The position numbers were made by a program, and so were the translations under genes. Positions 2,979-17,864 of a DNA stretch of 64,000 nt are shown here, piece by piece (position 1 is the stretch's first letter; each line of letters begins with the position of its first letter). Origin of the DNA: Escherichia coli (GTDB lineage Bacteria > Pseudomonadota > Gammaproteobacteria > Enterobacterales > Enterobacteriaceae). The notes under the pieces are model-generated. The model saw nothing but the letters and a program-made list of their open reading frames with translations. It did no database searches and was not told where the DNA came from. Where the stretch lies: the NCBI RefSeq assembly GCF_009931435.1, contig NZ_CP043414.1; one strand, given 5' to 3'.

Positions 2979-3314
2979 ATGGATAAAGAACGCATCATTC
3001 AGGAATTTGTGCCCGGCAAACAGGTCACGCTGGCGCATCTCATCGCGCATCCCGGCGAGGAACTGGCGAAGAAAATCGGCGTTCCGGATGCGGGCGCAAT
3101 CGGCATTATGACGCTAACTCCCGGCGAAACGGCGATGATCGCCGGTGATTTAGCGCTGAAAGCTGCCGATGTGCATATCGGTTTCCTCGACCGTTTTAGC
3201 GGCGCACTGGTGATTTATGGTTCGGTGGGCGCAGTAGAAGAAGCGTTATCACAAACCGTCAGCGGTTTAGGACGCTTATTAAATTATACGCTGTGTGAAA
3301 TGACCAAAAGTTAA
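2979..3314 (+). CDS. eutS: ethanolamine utilisation microcompartment shell protein EutS
   Basis: 111 aa from internal ATG at 2979 ([10 protein letters not shown]...); BMC-domain shell protein; first gene of eut cluster. Confidence 0.88.
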
Positions 3315-3326
3315 TACGAGGCATTC

Positions 3327-3806
3327 ATGAAACGAATTGCGTTTGTGGGTGTCGTCGGGGCAGGAAAAACAACGTTATTTAATGCGTTGCAGGGGAATTA
3401 TACCCTCGCCAGAAAAACACAGGCCGTGGAATTTAATGATAAGGGCGATATTGATACGCCGGGTGAATATTTTAGCCATCCCCGCTGGTATCACGCCTTA
3501 ATTACCACGCTACAGGATGTGGACATGCTGATTTATGTCCACGGCGCGAATGACCCGGAAAGCCGATTGCCTGCCGGGTTGCTGGATATTGGTGCCAGCA
3601 AACGGCAAATCGCCGTCATCAGTAAAACGGACATGCCGGATGCTGACGTCGCAGCAACGCGAAAGTTATTGCTTGAAACTGGTTTTGAAGAGCCGATTTT
3701 CGAGCTAAACAGCCACGACCCGCAAAGCGTGCAGCAACTGGTGAATTATCTGGCATCTCTCACCGAACAGGAGGAAGCAGGTGAAAAAACTCATCACAGC
3801 GAATGA
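3327..3806 (+). CDS. eutP: ethanolamine utilisation GTPase/acetate kinase-like protein EutP
   Basis: 159 aa; P-loop GVVGAGKTT near N-terminus; eut operon position. Confidence 0.88.
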   Translation: MKRIAFVGVVGAGKTTLFNALQGNYTLARKTQAVEFNDKGDIDTPGEYFSHPRWYHALITTLQDVDMLIYVHGANDPESRLPAGLLDIGASKRQIAVISKTDMPDADVAATRKLLLETGFEEPIFELNSHDPQSVQQLVNYLASLTEQEEAGEKTHHSE

Positions 3807-4482
3807 TATTCGTGAAGCACATGCGCGCGGCGAACAGGCAATGTCTGTGGTTCTGCGCGCCAGCATTATTACCCCGGAAGCCCGCGAAGTGGCGGACTTG
3901 CTGGGGTTTACCATCACCGAATGCACTGAATCGACGCCAGTAGCGGCATCTGTTCCCGTCAGCGTGCCTGCCGATAAAACTGAAAGCCAGCGTATCCGCG
4001 AAACCATCATCGCCCAGCTGCCGGAAGGCCAGTTTACCGAAAGCCTGGTCGCGCAGCTGATGGAAAAAGTGATGAAGGAAAAACAGTCGCTGGAGCAGGG
4101 GGCAATGCAGCCGAGTTTTAAATCGGTGACCGGCAAAGGCGGCATCAAAGTTATTGATGGCAGCAGCGTGAAGTTTGGTCGTTTCGATGGCGCGGAACCG
4201 CACTGCGTAGGCTTGACTGATCTCGTGACCGGAGACGACGGCAGCAGCATGGCCGCCGGTTTTATGCAGTGGGAGAACGCCTTCTTCCCGTGGACCCTGA
4301 ACTACGACGAAATCGACATGGTACTGGAAGGGGAGCTTCATGTTCGCCATGAAGGCGAAACCATGATCGCCAAAGCGGGCGACGTGATGTTTATCCCGAA
4401 AGGCTCCAGCATCGAATTTGGTACGACATCCAGCGTGAAATTCCTGTATGTCGCCTGGCCGGCTAACTGGCAATCCCTATGA
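3781..4482 (+). CDS. eutQ: ethanolamine utilisation cupin-domain protein EutQ
   Basis: 233 aa ORF overlapping the eutP 3' end by 26 nt; operon position. Confidence 0.85.
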   Translation: MKKLITANDIREAHARGEQAMSVVLRASIITPEAREVADLLGFTITECTESTPVAASVPVSVPADKTESQRIRETIIAQLPEGQFTESLVAQLMEKVMKEKQSLEQGAMQPSFKSVTGKGGIKVIDGSSVKFGRFDGAEPHCVGLTDLVTGDDGSSMAAGFMQWENAFFPWTLNYDEIDMVLEGELHVRHEGETMIAKAGDVMFIPKGSSIEFGTTSSVKFLYVAWPANWQSL

Positions 4483-5282
4483 AAGATTTCATCACCGAAG
4501 CATGGCTAAGAGCGAACCATACGCTCAGCGAAGGCGCAGAGATCCATCTCCCTGCGGACAGTCGCCTGACGCCCTCTGCCCGGGAGTTACTGGAAAGCCG
4601 CCATCTGCGCATCAAGTTTATTGACGAGCAGGGCCGCCTGTTTGTTGACGATGAACAGCAGCAGCTACAGCCCGTTCACGTGCTGACCAGTAGTGATGAA
4701 CATCCGCAGGCGTGCTGCGAACTGTGTCACCAGCCAGTGGCGAAAAAGCCGGACACGCTGACTCACCTGTCGGCGGAAAAAATGGTCGCCAAAAGCGATC
4801 CGCGCCTGGGTTTTCGCGCTGTTCTCGACAGCACCATTGCGCTGGTAGTGTGGCTGCAAATTGAACTGACAGAACCGTGGCAGCCGTGGCTGGCGGATAT
4901 CCGTTCGCGTCTTGGCAACATTATGCGTGCCGATGTGTTGGGCGAACCGCTGGGCTGCCAGGCGATTGTCGGGTTTTCTGACGAAGATCTGCATCGACTT
5001 TCTCACCAGCCACTACGTTATCTCGACCACGATCATCTGGTGCCGGAAGCCAGCCACGGACGTGATGCGGCGTTGCTGAATCTGCTACGCACCAAAGTGC
5101 GGGAAACCGAAACCGTAGCGGCGCAGGTGTTTATCACCCGCAGTTTTGAAGTATTACGCCCGGACATCTTACAGGCGCTGAACCGCCTTTCCAGCACGGT
5201 CTACGTGATGATGATTTTGAGCGTAACGAAGCAGCCGCTAACGGTGAAACAGATCCAACAACGACTGGGAGAGACGCAATGA
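4479..5282 (+). CDS. eutT: ethanolamine utilisation cob(I)alamin adenosyltransferase EutT
   Basis: 267 aa; 4-nt start/stop overlap with eutQ and eutD; operon position. Confidence 0.88.
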
Positions 5283-6295
5283 TTATTGAACGTTGTCGTG
5301 AACTGGCGTTGCGAGCGCCCGCCAGAGTAGTTTTTCCGGATGCGTTAGATCAACGTGTGCTGAAAGCTGCGCAATATTTACATCAACAAGGTCTGGCAAC
5401 GCCCATTCTGGTCGCCAATCCGTTTGAACTTCGTCAGTTTGCGCTCAGCCACGGCGTGGCGATGGACGGGCTACTGGTGATTGATCCTCATAGCAACCTC
5501 GCAATGCGGGAAGAATTTGCTCATCGCTGGCTGGCCCGCGCGGGCGAAAAAACGCCGCCGGATGCGCTGGAAAAACTTACCGATCCGCTGATGTTCGCCG
5601 CCGCAATGGTCAGCGCCGGTAAAGCGGATGTCTGTATCGCGGGCAACCTCTCTTCCACGGCGAATGTGCTGCGTGCCGGATTACGCATTATCGGCTTGCA
5701 GCAAGGCTGTAAAACGCTCTCCTCCATTTTCCTGATGCTGCCACAGTACAGCGGTCCAGCGTTGGGCTTTGCCGATTGCAGCGTAGTGCCACAGCCGACG
5801 GCGGCACAACTGGCGGATATCGCGCTTGCCAGCGCCGAAACCTGGCGAGCCATCACCGGAGAAGAGCCGCGGGTGGCGATGTTGTCGTTCTCCAGTAACG
5901 GCAGCGCCCGTCACCCCTGCGTTGCCAACGTCCAGCAAGCGACAGAAATCGTCCGTGAGCGCGCACCGCAGCTGGTCGTCGATGGCGAGTTGCAGTTTGA
6001 CGCCGCCTTTGTGCCAGAAGTGGCGGCGCAAAAAGCGCCAGCCAGCCCGCTACAGGGCAAAGCCAATGTGATGGTTTTTCCGTCGCTGGAGGCGGGAAAT
6101 ATTGGCTACAAAATCGCACAACGACTTGGCGGATATCGTGCCGTCGGGCCATTGATACAAGGACTTGCCGCGCCGATGCACGATCTTTCTCGTGGTTGTA
6201 GCGTGCAGGAAATTATCGAGCTGGCGCTGGTGGCAGCTGTGCCGCGTCAGACAAAAGTGAACCGCGAAAGCAGTTTACAAACACTGGTTGAATGA
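5279..6295 (+). CDS. eutD: phosphotransacetylase EutD
   Basis: 338 aa; PTA family sequence; operon position. Confidence 0.9.
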
Positions 6296-6333
6296 ACGGT
6301 CCCGTTCTGGACCCCTATAAAGAGGAAAACACA

Positions 6334-6627
6334 ATGGAAGCATTAGGAATGATCGAAACCCGGGGCCTGGTTGCACTGATTGAGGCTTCTGACGCGATGG
6401 TGAAAGCTGCGCGCGTCAAGCTGGTTGGTGTTAAGCAGATTGGCGGCGGCCTGTGTACTGCCATGGTTCGTGGTGATGTTGCAGCCTGTAAAGCCGCAAC
6501 CGATGCCGGTGCCGCAGCGGCACAGCGTATCGGTGAACTGGTATCCGTACATGTTATTCCGCGTCCGCACGGCGATCTGGAAGAGGTCTTCCCGATCGGC
6601 CTGAAAGGCGATAGCAGCAACCTGTAA
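6334..6627 (+). CDS. eutM: microcompartment shell protein EutM (BMC-H)
   Basis: 97 aa from ATG at 6334 ([26 protein letters not shown]...), canonical BMC domain; RBS agagga at 6321-6326. Confidence 0.9.
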
Positions 6628-6733
6628 TCACCCTGTGTGACGTCGATCCGGGCGTCACGCTCTCTCCTTTTTCAGTTTACCTTCCGCGGAGGGTAGGGGG
6701 AGCTTTTACCTGAAATACGCCACGGAGGCGGGT

Positions 6734-7021
6734 ATGAAACTGGCAGTCGTCACTGGACAAATTGTTTGTACCGTACGCCATCACGGACTGGCGCATGACA
6801 AATTGCTGATGGTGGAAATGATTGATCCACAAGGTAATCCTGACGGGCAATGCGCCGTCGCCATCGACAATATTGGCGCGGGAACCGGGGAGTGGGTGTT
6901 GCTGGTGAGTGGCAGTTCCGCCCGCCAGGCGCATAAAAGCGAAACGTCACCGGTCGATCTGTGCGTAATTGGCATTGTCGATGAGGTGGTCTCTGGCGGT
7001 CAGGTAATTTTCCACAAATAA
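6734..7021 (+). CDS. eutN: microcompartment vertex protein EutN (BMV/pentamer family)
   Basis: 95 aa; EutN/CcmL-like sequence; operon position. Confidence 0.88.
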   Translation: MKLAVVTGQIVCTVRHHGLAHDKLLMVEMIDPQGNPDGQCAVAIDNIGAGTGEWVLLVSGSSARQAHKSETSPVDLCVIGIVDEVVSGGQVIFHK

Positions 7022-7032
7022 GGCAGAACATC

Positions 7033-8436
7033 ATGAATCAACAGGATATTGAACAGGTGGTGAAAGCGGTACTGCTGAAAATGCAAAGCAGTGACACGCC
7101 GCCCGCCGCCGTTCATGAGATGGGCGTTTTTGCTTCCCTGGATGACGCCGTTGCGGCAGCCAAAATTGCCCAGCAAGGGTTAAAGAGCGTGGCAATGCGC
7201 CAGTTAGCCATTGCCGCTATTCGTGAAGCAGGCGAAAAACACGCCAGAGATTTAGCGGAACTTGCCGTCAGTGAAACGGGTATGGGCCGCGTAGAAGATA
7301 AATTTGCCAAAAACGTCGCTCAGGCACGCGGTACGCCAGGCGTTGAGTGCCTCTCTCCACAGGTGCTGACCGGTGACAACGGCCTGACTTTAATTGAAAA
7401 CGCGCCCTGGGGCGTGGTGGCTTCGGTGACGCCTTCCACTAACCCGGCGGCAACCGTAATTAATAACGCCATCAGCCTGATTGCCGCGGGCAACAGCGTC
7501 ATTTTTGCCCCGCATCCGGCGGCGAAAAAAGTCTCTCAACGGGCTATTACGCTGCTCAACCAGGCGATTGTTGCCGCAGGCGGGCCGGAAAACTTACTGG
7601 TTACTGTGGCCAATCCGGATATCGAAACCGCGCAACGTTTGTTCAAGTTCCCGGGTATCGGCCTGCTGGTGGTGACCGGCGGCGAAGCGGTAGTGGAAGC
7701 GGCGCGTAAACACACCAATAAACGTCTGATTGCCGCAGGCGCTGGCAACCCACCGGTAGTGGTGGATGAAACCGCCGACCTCGCCCGTGCCGCTCAGTCT
7801 ATCGTCAAAGGCGCTTCTTTCGATAACAACATCATTTGTGCCGATGAAAAGGTGCTGATTGTTGTTGATAGCGTAGCCGATGAACTAATGCGTCTGATGG
7901 AAGGCCAGCATGCGGTGAAACTGACCGCAGAACAGGCACAGCAGTTACAACCGGTGTTGCTGAAAAATATCGATGAGCGCGGAAAAGGCACCGTCAGCCG
8001 TGACTGGGTGGGTCGCGATGCGGCGAAAATCGCGGCGGCAATCGGCCTGAACGTGCCGCAAGAAACGCGCTTGCTGTTTGTAGAAACCCCCGCAGAACAT
8101 CCGTTTGCCGTGACCGAACTGATGATGCCAGTGCTGCCGGTCGTGCGCGTCGCCAACGTGGCGGATGCCATTGCGCTGGCGGTGAAACTGGAAGGCGGTT
8201 GCCACCACACGGCGGCAATGCACTCGCGCAATATCGAGAACATGAACCAAATGGCGAACGCCATTGATACCAGTATTTTCGTTAAGAACGGACCGTGCAT
8301 TGCCGGGCTGGGGCTGGGCGGGGAAGGCTGGACCACGATGACCATCACCACGCCAACCGGTGAAGGGGTAACCAGCGCGCGTACGTTTGTCCGTCTGCGT
8401 CGCTGTGTATTAGTCGATGCGTTTCGCATTGTTTAA
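7033..8436 (+). CDS. eutE: CoA-acylating acetaldehyde dehydrogenase EutE
   Basis: 467 aa aldehyde dehydrogenase family ORF; operon position. Confidence 0.9.
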   Translation: MNQQDIEQVVKAVLLKMQSSDTPPAAVHEMGVFASLDDAVAAAKIAQQGLKSVAMRQLAIAAIREAGEKHARDLAELAVSETGMGRVEDKFAKNVAQARGTPGVECLSPQVLTGDNGLTLIENAPWGVVASVTPSTNPAATVINNAISLIAAGNSVIFAPHPAAKKVSQRAITLLNQAIVAAGGPENLLVTVANPDIETAQRLFKFPGIGLLVVTGGEAVVEAARKHTNKRLIAAGAGNPPVVVDETADLARAAQSIVKGASFDNNIICADEKVLIVVDSVADELMRLMEGQHAVKLTAEQAQQLQPVLLKNIDERGKGTVSRDWVGRDAAKIAAAIGLNVPQETRLLFVETPAEHPFAVTELMMPVLPVVRVANVADAIALAVKLEGGCHHTAAMHSRNIENMNQMANAIDTSIFVKNGPCIAGLGLGGEGWTTMTITTPTGEGVTSARTFVRLRRCVLVDAFRIV

Positions 8437-8446
8437 GGAGTAACCG

Positions 8447-9283
8447 ATGGCGCACGACGAACAATGGCTTACCCCGCGTCTGCAAACGGCGGCAACGCTG
8501 TGTAACCAGACGCCCGCCACCACGGAGTCTCCGTTGTGGTTAGGGGTGGATCTGGGCACCTGCGATGTGGTGTCGATGGTTGTCGACGGCGACGGTCAGC
8601 CGGTGGCGGTATGCCTCGACTGGGCCGATGTGGTCCGCGACGGCATCGTCTGGGATTTCTTCGGTGCAGTTACGATTGTTCGTCGCCATCTCGATACCCT
8701 CGAGCAGCAATTTGGTCGCCGTTTTAGCCGTGCGGCGACTTCATTTCCACCAGGTACGGATCCGCGTATTTCCATCAATGTGCTGGAGTCTGCCGGGCTG
8801 GAAGTGAGCCATGTGCTGGATGAGCCAACCGCAGTCGCGGATCTACTGCAACTGGACAACGCCGGTGTAGTGGATATTGGCGGCGGCACTACCGGAATTG
8901 CCATCGTGAAAAAGGGCAAGGTGACTTATTCAGCGGATGAAGCGACCGGCGGACATCACATTTCTCTGACTCTCGCCGGAAATCGCCGTATTTCGCTGGA
9001 AGAGGCAGAGCAGTACAAGCGCGGTCACGGTGACGAGATTTGGCCTGCGGTGAAGCCGGTGTACGAAAAAATGGCGGACATTGTTGCCCGGCATATTGAA
9101 GGGCAGGGCATTACTGATTTATGGCTGGCGGGCGGCTCCTGTATGCAACCGGGCGTGGCGGAACTGTTTTGCAAACAATTCCCGGCGTTACAGGTGCATC
9201 TACCGCAGCACAGTTTGTTTATGACCCCGCTGGCGATCGCCAGTAGCGGGCGAGAGAAAGCGGAGGGGATCTATGCAAAATGA
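8447..9283 (+). CDS. eutJ: ethanolamine utilisation chaperone-like protein EutJ (actin/Hsp70 fold)
   Basis: 278 aa; DLGTCDV and DIGGGTTG ATPase motifs. Confidence 0.88.
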   Translation: MAHDEQWLTPRLQTAATLCNQTPATTESPLWLGVDLGTCDVVSMVVDGDGQPVAVCLDWADVVRDGIVWDFFGAVTIVRRHLDTLEQQFGRRFSRAATSFPPGTDPRISINVLESAGLEVSHVLDEPTAVADLLQLDNAGVVDIGGGTTGIAIVKKGKVTYSADEATGGHHISLTLAGNRRISLEEAEQYKRGHGDEIWPAVKPVYEKMADIVARHIEGQGITDLWLAGGSCMQPGVAELFCKQFPALQVHLPQHSLFMTPLAIASSGREKAEGIYAK

Positions 9284-10460
9284 ATTGCAGACCGCGCTCT
9301 TTCAGGCGTTCGATACCCTGAATCTGCAACGGGTAAAAACATTTAGCGTTCCACCGGTGACGCTTTGCGGTCCGGGCGCGGTGAGCAGTTGCGGACAGCA
9401 AGCGCAAACGCGTGGGCTGAAACATCTGTTCGTGATGGCAGACAGCTTTTTGCATCAGGCAGGGATGACCGCCGGGCTGACGCGTAGCCTGGCCGTTAAA
9501 GGTATCGCCATGACGCTCTGGCCATGTCCGGTGGGCGAACCGTGCATCACTGACGTGTGTGCCGCCGTGGCGCAGTTGCGTGAATCAGGCTGTGATGGGG
9601 TGATCGCGTTTGGCGGTGGCTCGGTGCTGGATGCGGCAAAAGCCGTGGCGTTGCTGGTAACGAATCCCGATAGCACGCTGGCAGAAATGTCAGAAACCAG
9701 CGTTCTGCAACCGCGCCTGCCGTTGATTGCCATTCCAACTACCGCCGGAACCGGCTCTGAAACCACCAATGTAACGGTGATTATCGACGCGGTGAGCGGG
9801 CGCAAGCAGGTGTTAGCACATGCCTCGTTGATGCCGGATGTGGCGATTCTCGACGCCGCGCTGACCGAAGGTGTGCCGTCGCATGTCACGGCAATGACCG
9901 GTATCGACGCGTTAACTCATGCCATTGAAGCGTACAGCGCGCTGAACGCTACACCGTTTACAGACAGCCTGGCGATTGGCGCAATTGCGATGATTGGTAA
10001 ATCACTGCCGAAAGCAGTGGGTTACGGTCATGACCTTGCCGCGCGCGAGAGTATGTTGCTGGCTTCATGCATGGCGGGAATGGCATTTTCCAGTGCCGGA
10101 CTTGGGTTATGTCACGCGATGGCGCATCAGCCGGGGGCGGCGCTGCATATTCCGCACGGTCTGGCGAACGCCATGCTGCTGCCCACGGTGATGGAGTTTA
10201 ACCGGATGGTCTGTCGCGAACGGTTTAGTCAGATTGGTCGGGCGCTGCGAACTAAAAAATCCGACGATCGTGACGCTATTAACGCGGTAAGTGAGCTGAT
10301 TGCGGAAGTCGGGATTGGTAAACGACTGGGCGATGTTGGTGCGGCATCTGCGCATTACGGCGCATGGGCGCAGGCCGCGCTGGAAGATATTTGTCTGCGC
10401 AGCAACCCGCGTACCGCCAGCCTGGAGCAGATTGTCGGCTTGTACGCAGCGGCGCAATAA
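9273..10460 (+). CDS. eutG: iron-containing alcohol dehydrogenase EutG
   Basis: 395 aa Fe-ADH family ORF; operon position. Confidence 0.9.
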   Translation: MQNELQTALFQAFDTLNLQRVKTFSVPPVTLCGPGAVSSCGQQAQTRGLKHLFVMADSFLHQAGMTAGLTRSLAVKGIAMTLWPCPVGEPCITDVCAAVAQLRESGCDGVIAFGGGSVLDAAKAVALLVTNPDSTLAEMSETSVLQPRLPLIAIPTTAGTGSETTNVTVIIDAVSGRKQVLAHASLMPDVAILDAALTEGVPSHVTAMTGIDALTHAIEAYSALNATPFTDSLAIGAIAMIGKSLPKAVGYGHDLAARESMLLASCMAGMAFSSAGLGLCHAMAHQPGAALHIPHGLANAMLLPTVMEFNRMVCRERFSQIGRALRTKKSDDRDAINAVSELIAEVGIGKRLGDVGAASAHYGAWAQAALEDICLRSNPRTASLEQIVGLYAAAQ

Positions 10461-10676
<216 letters not shown>

Positions 10677-11903
10677 ATGGGAATTAACGAAATCATCATG
10701 TACATCATGATGTTCTTTATGCTGATAGCTGCCGTAGACAGGATCTTGTCGCAGTTCGGCGGTTCGGCTCGTTTCCTCGGTAAGTTTGGTAAAAGTATCG
10801 AAGGATCGGGCGGCCAGTTCGAAGAAGGCTTTATGGCAATGGGCGCACTGGGCCTGGCGATGGTCGGTATGACCGCACTGGCACCAGTACTGGCCCACGT
10901 ACTTGGGCCGGTGATTATCCCGGTTTACGAAATGCTCGGCGCAAACCCGTCAATGTTCGCTGGAACACTGCTGGCGTGCGACATGGGCGGCTTCTTCCTC
11001 GCGAAAGAGCTGGCGGGCGGCGATGTGGCAGCGTGGCTATACTCTGGGTTAATTCTCGGATCGATGATGGGGCCAACGATTGTGTTTTCCATTCCGGTGG
11101 CGCTCGGCATTATCGAACCTTCTGACCGTCGTTATCTGGCGCTCGGCGTGCTGGCGGGCATTGTGACCATTCCGATTGGCTGTATTGCTGGTGGTCTGGT
11201 GGCTATGTACTCCGGTGTGCAGATCAACGGTCAGCCGGTGGAATTCACCTTTGCCCTGATCCTGATGAACATGATCCCGGTACTTATCGTTGCGGTGCTG
11301 GTGGCGCTGGGGCTGAAATTCATCCCGGAAAAAATGATCAACGGCTTCCAGATCTTCGCCAAATTCCTCGTTGCATTGATCACCCTCGGTCTTGCTGCCG
11401 CGGTAGTGAAATTCCTCCTTGGCTGGGAACTGATCCCCGGTCTGGATCCTATCTTTATGGCCCCTGGCGATAAACCCGGTGAAGTGATGCGCGCCATTGA
11501 AGTTATCGGTTCTATCTCCTGCGTGCTGTTAGGGGCGTATCCGATGGTGCTGCTGCTGACCCGCTGGTTTGAAAAACCGCTGATGAGCGTCGGTAAAGTG
11601 CTGAATATGAACAACATCGCGGCAGCCGGCATGGTGGCAACGCTTGCCAACAACATCCCGATGTTCGGCATGATGAAGCAGATGGATACCCGCGGCAAAG
11701 TGATCAACTGTGCCTTCGCCGTTTCCGCTGCTTTCGCCCTGGGTGACCATTTAGGCTTCGCCGCTGCCAACATGAACGCCATGATCTTCCCGATGATTGT
11801 CGGCAAGTTGATCGGCGGCGTTACGGCGATTGGCGTGGCGATGATGCTGGTGCCAAAAGAAGACGCGACCGCGGCTAAAACCGAAGCGGAGGCACAATCG
11901 TGA
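10677..11903 (+). CDS. eutH: ethanolamine permease EutH
   Basis: 408 aa polytopic membrane protein; operon position. Confidence 0.9.
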   Translation: MGINEIIMYIMMFFMLIAAVDRILSQFGGSARFLGKFGKSIEGSGGQFEEGFMAMGALGLAMVGMTALAPVLAHVLGPVIIPVYEMLGANPSMFAGTLLACDMGGFFLAKELAGGDVAAWLYSGLILGSMMGPTIVFSIPVALGIIEPSDRRYLALGVLAGIVTIPIGCIAGGLVAMYSGVQINGQPVEFTFALILMNMIPVLIVAVLVALGLKFIPEKMINGFQIFAKFLVALITLGLAAAVVKFLLGWELIPGLDPIFMAPGDKPGEVMRAIEVIGSISCVLLGAYPMVLLLTRWFEKPLMSVGKVLNMNNIAAAGMVATLANNIPMFGMMKQMDTRGKVINCAFAVSAAFALGDHLGFAAANMNAMIFPMIVGKLIGGVTAIGVAMMLVPKEDATAAKTEAEAQS

Positions 11904-13303
11904 ACACTCGCCAGCTACTGAGCGTCGGTATCGATATCGGCACTACCACCACCCAGGTGATCTTCTCCCACCTGGAGCTGGTTAACCGTGCGGCGGTGTC
12001 GCAGGTGCCGCGCTACGAATTCATCAAACGCGAAATTAGCTGGCAAAGCCCGGTGTTCTTTACCCCTGTCGATAAACTGGGCGGTTTAAAAGAAGCGGAA
12101 CTGAAAACCTTAATCCTCGAGCAATATCAGGCTGCGGGCATTGCGCCGGAAAGCGTTGATTCTGGTGCCATCATCATCACCGGTGAAAGCGCGAAAACCC
12201 GCAATGCTCGCCCGGCGGTGATGACGCTCTCCCAGTCGCTTGGCGATTTTGTCGTCGCCAGCGCCGGGCCGCATCTCGAATCCGTGATCGCCGGTCACGG
12301 TGCCGGGGCGCAAACCCTTTCTGAACAACGGCTGTGTCGGGTACTGAATATCGATATTGGCGGTGGCACCGCGAACTACGCTTTGTTCGATGCCGGAAAA
12401 ATCAGCGGCACCGCTTGCCTCAACGTCGGCGGTCGCCTGCTGGAAACCGACAGCCAGGGGCGCGTGGTTTACGCTCATAAACCGGGGCAGATGATAGTGG
12501 ATGAGTGCTTCGGTGCAGGCACTGACGCCCGTTCGCTGACCGGCGCGCAGCTGGTGCAGGTTACCCGGCGGATGGCGGAACTGATTGTCGAAGTGATTGA
12601 CGGAACGCTCTCGCCGCTCGCGCAGGCATTGATGCAAACCGGTTTGCTGCCCGCAGGTGTTACGCCCGAAATCATTACGCTTTCTGGCGGCGTGGGCGAA
12701 TGTTATCGCCACCAGCCCGCCGACCCGTTCTGTTTTGCCGATATCGGCCCGCTTCTGGCAACGGCGCTGCATGAGCATCCTCGTCTGCGTGAGATGAACG
12801 TGCAGTTTCCGGCGCAAACCGTACGCGCCACGGTGATTGGCGCGGGTGCACATACCCTTTCGCTCTCTGGCAGCACAATCTGGCTGGAGGGCGTACAACT
12901 GCCGCTGCGCAATTTGCCGGTGGCGATCCCAATTGATGAAACGGATCTGGTGAGTGCCTGGCAACAGGCGCTGATTCAGCTGGATCTTTGCCCCAAAACT
13001 GACGCGTACGTGCTGGCGCTTCCCGCCTCGCTGCCTGTGCGTTACGCCGCGGTACTGACGGTCATCAACGCGCTGGTCGATTTCGTCGCGCGTTTTCCGA
13101 ATCCGCATCCCCTGCTGGTGGTGGCCGGGCAGGATTTTGGTAAAGCTCTGGGCATGTTGTTGCGCCCACAGCTACAACAACTCCCGTTGGCAGTCATTGA
13201 CGAAGTGATTGTCCGCGCGGGGGACTATATCGACATTGGTACGCCTCTTTTTGGCGGATCGGTTGTGCCGGTGACGGTGAAATCACTCGCATTTCCTTCC
13301 TGA
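11900..13303 (+). CDS. eutA: ethanolamine ammonia-lyase reactivase EutA
   Basis: 467 aa; operon position; followed 11 nt later by eutB with no intervening element. Confidence 0.9.
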   Translation: MNTRQLLSVGIDIGTTTTQVIFSHLELVNRAAVSQVPRYEFIKREISWQSPVFFTPVDKLGGLKEAELKTLILEQYQAAGIAPESVDSGAIIITGESAKTRNARPAVMTLSQSLGDFVVASAGPHLESVIAGHGAGAQTLSEQRLCRVLNIDIGGGTANYALFDAGKISGTACLNVGGRLLETDSQGRVVYAHKPGQMIVDECFGAGTDARSLTGAQLVQVTRRMAELIVEVIDGTLSPLAQALMQTGLLPAGVTPEIITLSGGVGECYRHQPADPFCFADIGPLLATALHEHPRLREMNVQFPAQTVRATVIGAGAHTLSLSGSTIWLEGVQLPLRNLPVAIPIDETDLVSAWQQALIQLDLCPKTDAYVLALPASLPVRYAAVLTVINALVDFVARFPNPHPLLVVAGQDFGKALGMLLRPQLQQLPLAVIDEVIVRAGDYIDIGTPLFGGSVVPVTVKSLAFPS

Positions 13304-13314
13304 GGGAACGACTT

Positions 13315-14676
13315 ATGAAACTAAAGACCACATTGTTCGGCAATGTATATCAGTTTAAGGATGTAAAAGAGGTGCTGGCTAAAGCCAACGAACTGCGTTC
13401 GGGGGATGTGCTGGCGGGCGTTGCAGCGGCAAGCTCACAGGAGCGCGTGGCTGCAAAGCAGGTGTTGTCGGAAATGACCGTAGCGGACATCCGCAATAAT
13501 CCGGTGATTGCCTATGAAGATGACTGCGTGACGCGACTGATTCAGGACGACGTTAACGAAACGGCCTACAACCAGATTAAAAACTGGAGCATCAGCGAAC
13601 TGCGTGAGTATGTGCTGAGTGATGAAACCAGCGTTGACGACATTGCTTTTACCCGCAAAGGGCTGACCTCGGAAGTGGTCGCGGCGGTAGCGAAGATTTG
13701 CTCTAACGCGGACCTGATCTACGGCGCGAAGAAAATGCCGGTAATCAAAAAGGCCAATACAACTATTGGTATTCCGGGCACCTTCAGCGCCCGTTTGCAG
13801 CCAAACGATACCCGCGACGACGTGCAAAGTATCGCCGCGCAAATCTACGAAGGGCTTTCTTTCGGGGTGGGCGATGCGGTGATCGGCGTTAACCCGGTGA
13901 CTGACGACGTGGAAAACTTAAGCCGCGTGCTGGATACCATCTATGGCGTGATCGACAAATTCAACATTCCAACCCAGGGCTGCGTGCTGGCGCACGTCAC
14001 CACCCAGATCGAAGCGATTCGTCGCGGTGCGCCGGGCGGGCTGATTTTCCAGAGTATCTGCGGCAGTGAAAAAGGGCTGAAAGAGTTTGGCGTAGAGCTG
14101 GCGATGCTCGATGAAGCACGCGCAGTGGGCGCAGAGTTTAACCGTATCGCCGGGGAAAACTGCCTCTACTTCGAAACCGGGCAGGGTTCTGCGCTATCGG
14201 CGGGCGCTAACTTCGGTGCAGATCAGGTAACGATGGAAGCGCGTAACTACGGGCTGGCACGTCATTACGATCCGTTTATCGTCAACACCGTAGTGGGCTT
14301 TATTGGGCCAGAGTATCTCTACAACGACCGGCAGATTATCCGTGCGGGCTTAGAAGATCACTTTATGGGCAAACTGAGCGGCATTTCTATGGGCTGTGAC
14401 TGCTGCTACACCAACCACGCTAACGCTGACCAGAACCTCAACGAAAACCTGATGATCCTGCTCGCCACCGCAGGCTGCAACTACATCATGGGGATGCCGC
14501 TGGGCGATGACATCATGCTCAACTATCAGACTACGGCCTTCCACGACACCGCCACTGTGCGTCAGTTACTCAACCTGCGCCCGTCACCGGAGTTTGAACG
14601 CTGGCTGGAAAGCATGGGCATTATGGCAAACGGTCGCCTGACCAAACGGGCGGGCGATCCGTCACTGTTCTTCTGA
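13315..14676 (+). CDS. eutB: ethanolamine ammonia-lyase large subunit EutB
   Basis: 453 aa; RBS gaggga upstream; operon position. Confidence 0.92.
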   Translation: MKLKTTLFGNVYQFKDVKEVLAKANELRSGDVLAGVAAASSQERVAAKQVLSEMTVADIRNNPVIAYEDDCVTRLIQDDVNETAYNQIKNWSISELREYVLSDETSVDDIAFTRKGLTSEVVAAVAKICSNADLIYGAKKMPVIKKANTTIGIPGTFSARLQPNDTRDDVQSIAAQIYEGLSFGVGDAVIGVNPVTDDVENLSRVLDTIYGVIDKFNIPTQGCVLAHVTTQIEAIRRGAPGGLIFQSICGSEKGLKEFGVELAMLDEARAVGAEFNRIAGENCLYFETGQGSALSAGANFGADQVTMEARNYGLARHYDPFIVNTVVGFIGPEYLYNDRQIIRAGLEDHFMGKLSGISMGCDCCYTNHANADQNLNENLMILLATAGCNYIMGMPLGDDIMLNYQTTAFHDTATVRQLLNLRPSPEFERWLESMGIMANGRLTKRAGDPSLFF

Positions 14677-14696
14677 TGACGCGGAGATAACACATC

Positions 14697-15584
14697 ATGG
14701 ATCAAAAACAGATTGAAGAAATTGTACGCAGCGTGATGGCGTCAATGGGACAAGCGGCCCCCGCGCCGTCAGAAGCAAAATGCGCCACTACCACCTGTGC
14801 GGCACCGGTGACCTCGGAAAGCTGCGCGCTGGATTTAGGTTCCGCGGAAGCAAAAGCGTGGATTGGCGTTGAAAACCCGCATCGCGCAGACGTATTAACA
14901 GAACTGCGCCGCAGCACCGTGGCTCGCGTCTGTACCGGTCGTGCTGGTCCGCGTCCGCGTACCCAGGCGCTGTTGCGTTTCCTGGCCGATCACTCTCGTT
15001 CGAAAGACACCGTACTGAAAGAAGTGCCGGAAGAGTGGGTGAAAGCGCAGGGCTTGCTGGAAGTCCGCTCTGAAATTAGCGACAAAAATCTCTATCTGAC
15101 TCGCCCGGATATGGGCCGCCGCTTGTGTGCAGAGGCTGTTGAAGCGCTGAAAGCGCAGTGTGTTGCCAATCCGGACGTACAGGTGGTTATTTCCGATGGT
15201 CTGTCTACTGATGCGATCACCGTGAACTATGAAGAGATTCTGCCACCGCTGATGGCGGGCCTGAAACAGGCCGGGTTGAAAGTCGGCACACCGTTCTTTG
15301 TGCGTTACGGTCGCGTGAAGATTGAAGATCAGATTGGCGAACTTCTTGGCGCGAAAGTGGTGATCCTGCTGGTGGGTGAACGTCCGGGGTTGGGGCAGTC
15401 AGAAAGTCTCTCCTGCTACGCCGTTTACTCGCCGCGTATGGCAACCACCGTTGAGGCCGACCGTACCTGTATCTCTAACATTCACCAGGGCGGCACGCCG
15501 CCGGTTGAAGCCGCAGCCGTCATTGTGGATTTGGCGAAACGTATGCTGGAGCAGAAAGCATCCGGCATCAACATGACCCGATAA
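14697..15584 (+). CDS. eutC: ethanolamine ammonia-lyase small subunit EutC
   Basis: 295 aa; operon position. Confidence 0.92.
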
Positions 15585-15593
15585 GGAGGCATC

Positions 15594-16253
15594 ATGCCAG
15601 CTTTAGATTTGATTCGACCGTCGGTAACCGCCATGCGGGTGATTGCCTCTGTTAACGCCGAATTTGCGCGTGAACTGAAATTGCCGCCGCATATTCGTAG
15701 CCTCGGGCTGATTTCTGCTGATTCCGATGACGTCACCTACATTGCGGCTGACGAAGCGACCAAGCAGGCGATGGTTGAAGTCGTGTATGGTCGCTCGCTG
15801 TATGCGGGAGCCGCACACGGCCCGTCACCGACTGCCGGTGAAGTGCTGATTATGCTCGGGGGGCCAAACCCGGCGGAAGTGCGTGCTGGTCTGGATGCGA
15901 TGGTTGCGCATATTGAAAATGGCGCGGCTTTCCAGTGGGCTAACGACGCGCAAGATACGGCATTCCTGGCACATGTAGTTTCGCGTACCGGTTCTTATCT
16001 CTCATCAACCGCCGGGATCACGCTTGGCGATCCGATGGCGTATTTGGTGGCACCGCCGCTGGAAGCGACCTACGGCATTGATGCAGCGTTGAAATCTGCC
16101 GACGTGCAGCTGGTGACCTATGTCCCGCCACCGTCTGAAACCAACTACTCGGCAGCATTTTTAACCGGTAGCCAGGCCGCGTGTAAAGCAGCCTGTAACG
16201 CCTTTACCGATGCAGTGCTGGAAATCGCGCGTAATCCAATCCAGCGTGCGTAA
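15594..16253 (+). CDS. eutL: microcompartment shell protein EutL (tandem BMC)
   Basis: 219 aa; operon position. Confidence 0.9.
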
Positions 16254-16265
16254 CGGAGGTTGCCG

Positions 16266-16766
16266 ATGATCAATGCACTGGGATTGCTGGAAGTGGACGG
16301 CATGGTCGCCGCGATAGATGCAGCTGATGCCATGCTCAAAGCAGCTAACGTTCGTCTGCTCAGTCACGAAGTGCTTGACCCTGGTCGCCTAACGCTGGTG
16401 GTGGAAGGCGATCTGGCGGCGTGTCGTGCGGCGCTGGACGCAGGTTGTGCTGCCGCGATGCGTACCGGGCGTGTCATCAGCCGTAAGGAGATCGGTCGGC
16501 CAGACGATGACACCCAGTGGCTGGTTACTGGCTTTAACCGCCAGCCGAAGCAATCCGTAAAGGAACCCGACGCGCCAGTTATCGTCGCGGAATCTGCTGA
16601 CGAGTTGTTGGCGCTGTTAACATCAGTACGTCAGGGAATGACGGCAGGAGAAGTGGCTGCCCACTTTGGCTGGCCGCTGGAAAAAGCCAGAAATGCGCTC
16701 GAACAGCTCTTTTCTGCCGGGACGTTACGTAAACGCAGTAGTCGTTATCGTCTCAAGCCCCATTAA
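16266..16766 (+). CDS. eutK: microcompartment shell protein EutK (BMC domain plus C-terminal helix-turn-helix-like tail)
   Basis: 166 aa from ATG at 16266 (MINALGLLEVDGMVAAIDAADAM...), RBS ggagg at 16255-16259. Confidence 0.88.
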   Translation: MINALGLLEVDGMVAAIDAADAMLKAANVRLLSHEVLDPGRLTLVVEGDLAACRAALDAGCAAAMRTGRVISRKEIGRPDDDTQWLVTGFNRQPKQSVKEPDAPVIVAESADELLALLTSVRQGMTAGEVAAHFGWPLEKARNALEQLFSAGTLRKRSSRYRLKPH

Positions 16767-16811
16767 CCTGTCGGAGGTGCCGGGTGTCCTACAACACCCG
16801 GCATTAACATC

Positions 16812-17864
16812 ATGAAAAAGACCCGTACAGCCAATTTGCACCATCTTTATCATGAACCCTTACCCGAAAACCTGAAGCTCACGCCGAAGGTCGAAGTGGA
16901 TAATGTTCATCAACGGCAAACAACGGATGTCTATGAACATGCTTTGACGATTACCGCCTGGCAGCAGATTTACGATCAGCTGCATCCGGGCAAGTTTCAT
17001 GGTGAATTTACGGAAATTCTACTCGATGATATTCAGGTTTTTCGTGAATACACCGGTCTGGCGCTGCGTCAGTCGTGCCTGGTCTGGCCGAACTCGTTCT
17101 GGTTTGGCATTCCGGCGACACGCGGTGAGCAGGGATTTATCGGTTCGCAATGTCTGGGAAGCGCAGAAATAGCGACGCGCCCTGGAGGAACCGAGTTTGA
17201 ATTAAGTACGCCGGACGATTACACGATCCTTGGCGTGGTGCTTTCTGAAGATGTCATCACCCGTCAGGCTAACTTTTTGCATAACCCGGAAAGGGTGCTG
17301 CATATGTTACGTAACCAGTCGGCGCTGGAAGTGAAAGAGCAGCATAAAGCCGCGCTGTGGGGCTTTGTCCAACAGGCTCTGGCGACATTTTGCGAGAACC
17401 CGGAAAATCTCCATCAGCCTGCAGTGCGAAAAGTGCTGGGGGATAATTTGCTAATGGCGATGGGGGCGATGCTGGAAGAAGCGCAGCCAATGGTGACGGC
17501 GGAAAGTATCAGCCACCAGAGTTACCGTCGCTTGTTGACCCGCGCGCGTGAATATGTGCTGGAGAATATGTCCGAACCGGTAACCGTGCTGGATTTGTGC
17601 AATCAACTGCATGTCAGCCGCCGCACGCTACAAAACGCGTTTCACGCTCTTTTAGGCATTGGCCCAAACGCGTGGCTGAAACGCATTCGCCTGAACGCCG
17701 TGCGCCGCGAACTGATAAGCCCGTGGTCGCAAAGTACAACGGTCAAAGATGCCGCCATGCAGTGGGGATTCTGGCATCTGGGGCAATTCGCCACGGATTA
17801 CCAGCAACTGTTTGCCGAGAAGCCGTCTCTGACGCTACATCAGCGGATGCAGGAACTGGAGTGA
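16812..17864 (+). CDS. eutR: AraC-family transcriptional activator of the eut operon
   Basis: 350 aa; AraC-type HTH in C-terminal region; last gene of the cluster. Confidence 0.9.

Follow-up and report, generated by a model that had tools for sequence, protein, structure and literature searches.

Short gene overlaps are the classical setting of translational coupling by termination-reinitiation. Described systems with an ATGA or GTGA junction include trpB-trpA and E. coli hyfHI, astDB and menDH, and in reporter tests four of five native E. coli ATGA pairs were coupled by termination-reinitiation (PMC6728339). A Shine-Dalgarno motif (SD) inside the upstream gene is typical of such pairs, and removing it lowered reinitiation in four of the five E. 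coli pairs tested (PMC6728339). A distance of -8 to +6 nt has been taken as indicative of the mechanism, and genes for heteromeric complexes are enriched among coupled pairs (PMC10666635). For the coat and lysis genes of phage fr, which overlap by 34 nt, reinitiation by back-scanning was proposed, at least as the work is cited in PMC10666635. For the eut operon, best compared with the EUT1 locus of Salmonella enterica LT2 and E. coli K-12, a literature search found no paper treating translational coupling or mapping eutQ initiation sites, and no experiment on the translation of any eut junction.

The window, by which we mean the whole 64,000-nt stretch of DNA analysed, comes from an Escherichia strain and holds a complete eut operon of 17 genes at 2979-17864 on the plus strand, with maeB upstream. 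Open reading frames, junctions and RefSeq annotation agree on the EUT1-type order eutS-P-Q-T-D-M-N-E-J-G-H-A-B-C-L-K-R, all on one strand; LT2 and K-12 have the same genes in the same order, with the boundaries of the RefSeq E. coli annotation. The segment at 3300-5300 has matches in 5,411 of 5,426 complete E. coli genomes, and in the closest of these (99.0% identical) the RefSeq gene boundaries are those of the initial annotation of this DNA. Salmonella subspecies share the junctions of the window except at eutP/eutQ, where the distance is -23 instead of -26 nt; some K-12 strains carry a prophage insertion downstream of eutA (PMC11334477 supplement) that the window lacks, and we saw no other difference. 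The expected Pfam domains are present in EutP (PF10662, PduV-EutP, E = 4e-29), EutQ (PF06249, E = 2e-69) and EutT (PF01923, E = 5e-13). Neither the operon with its gene boundaries nor the eutP/eutQ overlap is new: both are in public annotation and the literature. The genes that take part in overlaps are as follows.

3327-3806, plus strand: eutP, 159 aa; PduV-EutP domain at residues 1-143, the last 16 residues being a non-domain tail
3781-4482, plus strand: eutQ, 233 aa, GTG start; N-terminal shell/cargo-linker region, then cupin domain PF06249 at residues 85-232
4479-5282, plus strand: eutT, 267 aa, adenosyltransferase; Cob_adeno_trans PF01923 at residues 95-246
5279-6295, plus strand: eutD, pta-type phosphotransacetylase
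8447-9283, plus strand: eutJ, 278 aa, upstream member of the 11-nt overlap
9273-10460, plus strand: eutG, 395 aa, downstream member of the 11-nt overlap
10677-11903, plus strand: eutH, 408 aa, upstream member of the GTGA overlap
11900-13303, plus strand: eutA, 467 aa, GTG start, downstream member of the GTGA overlap

The 16 junctions of the operon have these distances (negative values are overlaps).

eutS to eutP: +12 nt
eutP to eutQ: -26 nt, overlap at 3781-3806, plus strand, GTGAAAAAACTCATCACAGCGAATGA; eutQ codons 1-9 over the eutP tail codons that end in GEKTHHSE and the stop
eutQ to eutT: -4 nt, ATGA at 4479-4482, plus strand; no SD in the preceding 20 nt (CCGGCTAACTGGCAATCCCT)
eutT to eutD: -4 nt, ATGA at 5279-5282, plus strand; SD-like GGGAGAG at 5267-5273
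eutD to eutM: +38 nt
eutM to eutN: +106 nt
eutN to eutE: +11 nt
eutE to eutJ: +10 nt
eutJ to eutG: -11 nt, overlap at 9273-9283, plus strand, ATGCAAAATGA; SD GGAGGGG at 9262-9268
eutG to eutH: +216 nt
eutH to eutA: -4 nt, GTGA at 11900-11903, plus strand; SD GGAGG at 11888-11892
eutA to eutB: +11 nt
eutB to eutC: +20 nt
eutC to eutL: +9 nt
eutL to eutK: +12 nt
eutK to eutR: +45 nt

All five overlaps that the initial annotation had listed (26, 4, 4, 11 and 4 nt) are present at verified coordinates; its description of the 4-nt junctions as ATGA-type holds for eutQ/eutT and eutT/eutD but not for eutH/eutA, where the junction is GTGA. These three pairs share the canonical 4-nt overlap of the coupled systems described above, and four of the five overlapped eut starts likewise have an SD inside the upstream gene, the exception being eutT. 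At eutP/eutQ and eutJ/eutG the start precedes the upstream stop, as in phage fr as cited in PMC10666635. The 216-nt spacer between eutG and eutH contains REP/BIME-type repeats and matches Rfam naRNA4.

Overlaps are no more frequent in the eut operon than in the E. coli background. Among co-directional E. coli pairs, 707 of 2,987 (24%) lie at -8 to +6 nt, the commonest single distance being -4 (PMC10666635), and the eut operon has three of its 16 junctions in this class (eutQ/eutT, eutT/eutD and eutH/eutA, all at -4), for a binomial P(>=3) of 0.77 against the E. coli rate; eutP/eutQ (-26) and eutJ/eutG (-11) fall outside it. Six of the 16 junctions lie at +9 to +12 nt, compared with 6.8% of co-directional E. 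coli pairs (nominal P = 4e-4), an enrichment that is overstated because the background mixes in pairs from different operons and makes the comparison generous. The operon is more notable for this E. coli-typical class, in which the SD sits in a minimal spacer, than for its overlaps.

We consider it probable that these are normal annotated eut junctions, with eutQ starting at GTG 3781 and initiated directly, eutT translated by termination-reinitiation, and eutD, eutG and eutA reached by either route. The overlapped starts of eutQ, eutD, eutG and eutA have an SD with a duplex dG of -7.3 to -10.3 kcal/mol, against -1.7 for eutT. Predicted opening energies (dG_open) of the five overlapped start regions, computed on 160-nt fragments, were 8.7-10.9 kcal/mol, at the 12th to 31st percentile of 300 random operon positions. 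Since all five are more accessible than the operon average, we rejected RNA structure that hides overlapped starts until the upstream gene is translated. The start region of eutR, which has no SD, is predicted to be the most occluded of the operon.

For comparison, we used loci from 55 species genomes that include Escherichia, Salmonella, Citrobacter, Klebsiella, Buttiauxella, Morganella, Serratia, Pseudomonas and Xenophilus. Four loci are left out of the counts over 53: L045 from C. koseri, which is frameshifted, L055 and L056, both distant hits, and L001, a near-duplicate from E. coli. Tallies of junctions further omit L014 and the partial locus L054.

The overlaps had been read initially as suggesting translational coupling, a suggestion that we keep for eutQ/eutT, with its ATGA and missing SD, and give up for eutP/eutQ, where the downstream gene has a strong SD of its own and EutQ is about 14 times as abundant as EutP. 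The eutQ/eutT junction is the best candidate for real coupling and the sole one that fits the sequence signature of coupling. Across the 21 loci with an ATGA-type eutQ/eutT junction, the median SD dG was -1.5, with one outlier at -6.9, while all 27 loci with a gap of +4 to +12 nt have an SD-like GAGG, AAGG or GGAG (dG -5.2 to -9.2); the Citrobacter-type junction, for example, has a 13-nt spacer with an SD (TAAGGCGGATGT). The link between SD loss and ATGA may stem from a single evolutionary (deletion) event and so carries little statistical weight. EutT has been detected by proteomics with 206-fold induction, and is absent from the listed abundant Eut proteins, of which the lowest scores 7 (PMC11334477). 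A protein that is made, yet at a low level, fits low-yield reinitiation from a heavily translated eutQ, in which ribosomes terminating on eutQ would reinitiate one base upstream. A further-reaching version, to which we would give slightly less than an even chance, is that the eutT of Escherichia, Salmonella and Klebsiella, having no SD, relies wholly on eutQ-terminating ribosomes, with the AUGA acting as a step-down and EutT possibly tethered to the shell like EutQ.

The strongest competing account is that the overlaps are functionless, neutral by-products of stop and start drift in a compact operon in which every gene, eutT included, initiates independently. Junction types do differ by lineage while the proteins are conserved, four of the five overlapped starts are preceded by a strong SD in an accessible region, and E. 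coli bioBF overlaps but initiates de novo (PMC6728339). What makes this account rather unlikely is eutT, which has no recognisable SD in all ATGA lineages but one and whose protein is nonetheless made; the gap lineages all have a eutT SD, and initiation at the Escherichia-type eutT is hard to picture without ribosomes delivered by eutQ.

EutT also resembles EutQ at its N-terminus. Residues 1-41 of the two proteins align in register from Met1 (BLASTP E = 8e-5; profile-profile probability 74%, E = 2.7e-5), and the shared module of about 40 residues is, in EutQ, the shell-binding H1/H2 region. By this similarity, EutT may, like EutQ, be tethered to the shell of the microcompartment. An EutQ-type N-terminal module also heads phosphotransacetylase-domain proteins whose genes take the place of eutQ in eut-like loci from metagenomes (P0051 in L059; P0105). 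Fusions of the eutQ N-terminus to eutD (L057) and of eutP to eutQ (L058) were each seen on one contig and are probably mutations or assembly errors.

For eutD, eutG and eutA, reinitiation and direct initiation may both operate: with a short overlap and a good SD, each could use the two routes side by side. The eutT/eutD distance is -4 or -11 nt among relatives and is well conserved (SD dG -7.3), eutJ/eutG is at -11 in 29 of 37 loci (SD dG -10.0) and eutH/eutA at -4 in 34 of 42 (SD dG -9.5). All three start regions are predicted to be accessible, at the 12th to 27th percentile of operon positions.

Conservation of these three junctions across most Enterobacterales, together with the preference for short overlaps in termination-reinitiation and the reporter results for E. 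coli ATGA pairs, could be taken to mean that all five overlaps couple translation tightly and thereby hold adjacent Eut proteins at set ratios. We regard this as improbable. On ethanolamine, E. coli K-12 had EutQ as its most abundant Eut protein, with an iBAQ value of 100 against 7 for EutP, 10 for EutD and 7 for EutG (PMC11334477). EutQ thus exceeds EutP about 14-fold and EutD about 10-fold, and EutT ranks below the listed proteins, so that overlapped partners do not have comparable output, although abundance reflects stability and mass-spectrometry detectability as well as translation. Levels span about 100-fold within this one operon (PMC11334477), which argues that translation is set largely gene by gene. 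The eutP/eutQ and eutJ/eutG junctions lie beyond the -8 to +6 window, the eutP/eutQ and eutQ/eutT junction types differ between genera, and the frequency of overlaps equals the genome background. Unlike the ATGA- and GTGA-coupled systems, to which the eut junctions are likened here on sequence grounds, the overlapped eut pairs differ at least tenfold in abundance and to our knowledge none is a known heteromeric complex. EutB and EutC, which we take to be the operon's one complex pair, are encoded by genes 20 nt apart.

Our preferred reading of eutQ is direct initiation. The roughly 14-fold excess of EutQ over EutP implies that the eutQ product does not come mainly from ribosomes that finished eutP, and we infer that eutQ is probably initiated on its own, without stoichiometric coupling to eutP. 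Its start region has a predicted dG_open of 10.9 kcal/mol (31st percentile). Translation would proceed mainly from the strong SD inside eutP, and ribosomes finishing eutP would not feed eutQ. At eutP/eutQ and eutJ/eutG, a terminating ribosome would need to go back to reach the start codon, as proposed for phage fr in the work cited by PMC10666635; given the strong SDs of eutQ and eutG and a level of EutQ far above that of EutP, such back-scanning is unneeded for expression.

The initial annotation had also raised a downstream in-frame codon as the possible eutQ start, which we rejected on SD strength, conservation and periodicity. As judged from the comparative sequence evidence, the annotated GTG at 3781 is correct. 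The features that bear on the choice are these.

3769-3774, plus strand: eutQ SD AGGAGG, lying in eutP, with a spacing of 6 nt to GTG 3781; anti-SD duplex dG -10.3 kcal/mol
3841-3849, plus strand: rejected eutQ starts, ATG at codon 21 (3841) and GTG at codon 23 (3847); SD dG -2.1 and -2.6

An upstream extension is impossible, since the frame is closed by a stop at 3742 and offers no start codon ahead of 3781; between that stop and codon 21, GTG 3781 is the sole ATG, GTG or TTG in the frame. The codon aligned to it is a start in all 53 usable loci (GTG in 30, ATG in 23), and most related loci have a GGAGG/GAGGA-type motif at the SD position, weaker in some distant ones. Three-base periodic conservation, with free third positions, begins precisely at codon 1, whereas upstream of it the eutQ frame of related loci has no periodicity and contains stops. 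The conserved EutQ N-terminus (MKKLITANDIR through IITPEAR, helices H1/H2) starts at the annotated start: among the 53 loci K2, L4 and A7 are invariant and I5, T6 and R11 almost so, residues 2-11 are conserved, and residues 1-20 as a whole are among the most conserved of the N-terminal region. When a profile of EutQ residues 1-48 was compared with 1.84 billion cluster representatives, 126 of the 150 best had the module in register at residues 1-5. For Salmonella LT2, the authors themselves state that eutQ codons 1-9 overlap eutP, and a chromosomal deletion of codons 9-21 (helix H1) in Salmonella separates shell from cargo (PMC12487888); this deletion also takes out Met21, and so is supportive but by itself not decisive between the starts.

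That eutQ begins instead at ATG 3841 or GTG 3847, making the eutP/eutQ overlap an annotation artefact, is therefore very hard to sustain. The two in-frame codons exist, and overlaps annotated at more than 60 nt often turn out to be misannotated (Palleja 2008, as cited in PMC10666635), but this overlap is merely 26 nt and neither codon has a preceding SD. Residues 1-20, which a downstream start would discard, are strongly conserved and show a pattern of synonymous substitutions in the eutQ frame, and the homologous module opens EutT from its first residue and lies at residues 1-5 of 126 of the 150 distant representatives. Codon 21 encodes Met in 18 of 53 loci, Leu in 21 and Ile in 12, so that Leu or Ile occupies most of the 35 non-Met loci.

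With the start placed at GTG 3781, variation in the overlap itself can be traced to the eutP end. Distances between eutP and eutQ among relatives were -26 (Escherichia, C. sedlakii, Yokenella, Entomohabitans), -23 (Salmonella, Klebsiella, most Citrobacter), -4 with ATGA (Buttiauxella, Pseudomonas, Xenophilus), or +4, +11, +12 and +15, with gaps of +4 to +15 in Morganella, Pluralibacter, Serratia and Intestinirhabdus. For Morganella-type eutP, the gaps of -753 to -795 given by automatic models are false, and the reading frame that ends nearest the eutQ start gives +12. Inspection of the codons showed that the eutP stop is set by eutQ: GCG-AAT-GAT (A-N-D) gives TGA and a distance of -26, and GCT-AAC-GAT gives TAA one codon earlier and -23, so that this difference arises from synonymous codon choice in eutQ. 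The EutP tail beyond the domain varies in length and sequence and is not conserved. In the lineage of Escherichia, Salmonella, Klebsiella and Citrobacter, eutP would thus read past the eutQ start as a short non-conserved tail whose sequence and stop would follow from the codons that encode the conserved N-terminus of EutQ. Being non-conserved, outside the domain and stopped by eutQ codons, the tail would be a passenger on eutQ, whose 5' end is constrained. Very hard to credit, with next to no probability in our view, is a programmed frameshift or slippage at the A6 run in the overlap (GTGAAAAAAC) that would yield an EutP-EutQ fusion. The eutQ frame is indeed +1 to that of eutP, and in one assembly the two are encoded as a single protein of 381 aa (P0018/L058), but the run is not conserved (AAGAAA or AAGAAG in Klebsiella, Morganella and Pseudomonas), many genera have no eutP/eutQ overlap or one of only 4 nt, and the fused frame comes from one contig of one sample.

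These junctions are of little importance in themselves, short overlaps being routine in E. coli, and the eutT coupling proposed here is a small addition, not a discovery. In re-annotation, the eutQ N-terminus should not be trimmed, because a functional shell-binding helix is encoded there, and any deletion designed for eutP or eutQ has to take account of the 26-nt overlap and of the SD that eutP contains, as was done in the Salmonella work. The eutT gene offers a clean test of SD-independent termination-reinitiation in a natural setting. If the further-reaching version is true, the AUGA junction would pass a small fixed fraction of EutQ output to EutT.

Over their first ~41 residues, EutQ and EutT resemble each other in the same register from Met1 onward, and both carry the pattern M-x-x-L/F-I-T...R...I/L-T-P-x-A-R-E. 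The similar regions, identified by BLASTP (14/37 identities, E 8e-5) and by profile-profile comparison (probability 74%, E 2.7e-5), are:

Window 3781-3903, + strand: N-terminal region of EutQ
Window 4479-4601, + strand: N-terminal region of EutT

No Pfam model covers the N-terminal ~41 residues of either protein.

Proteins P0051 and P0105, from divergent metagenomic eut-like loci, also carry an N-terminal region of EutQ type, in their case joined to a phosphotransacetylase (PTA_PTB) domain. The P0051 gene has a GTG start, overlaps the directly upstream eutP by 4 nt and is followed downstream by a BMC shell gene. From these fusions, the EutQ N-terminal linker looks like a portable module whose start always lies at residue 1. 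Two further fusions, found in Escherichia-type operons, were each seen on one contig from one sample, which makes mutation or misassembly the probable explanation for either one; the first joins eutQ codons ~1-89 in frame to eutD, without eutT and the eutQ cupin domain.

Locus L059, 1325-2779: P0051, EutQ-type N-terminus fused to PTA_PTB
Locus L057, 4001-5284: eutQ-eutD in-frame fusion
Locus L058, 803-1948: eutP-eutQ fusion ORF, 381 aa

Elsewhere in the operon:

Window 10461-10676, + strand: eutG-eutH spacer, 216 nt
Window 13303-13315, + strand: eutA-eutB junction, gap of just 11 nt
Window 16790-16820, + strand: region around the eutR start (16812)

The spacer, the widest gap within the operon, contains paired REP/BIME-like repeats and a match to Rfam naRNA4 (RF02564; 10515-10596, 73 bits), and its predicted fold is very stable (-103 kcal/mol, z = -5.5). 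Before eutR, the operon's regulator gene, there is no Shine-Dalgarno motif (dG -1.7), and the start region has the highest predicted occlusion in the operon (dG_open 20 kcal/mol, 96th percentile), which fits a regulator that is translated at a very low level. Identity of 99% to window segment 3300-5300 is reached by only 9 E. coli genomes, and ~2,200 are 90-95% identical; the window's source is therefore a less common Escherichia lineage. The prophage that some E. coli K-12 strains carry downstream of eutA (PMC11334477 supplement) is missing from the window.

The region of Salmonella EutQ corresponding to the shared N-terminus is the shell-binding H1/H2 (PMC12487888), and thus, judging from sequence similarity, EutT may likewise be tethered to the shell through the module it has in common with EutQ.
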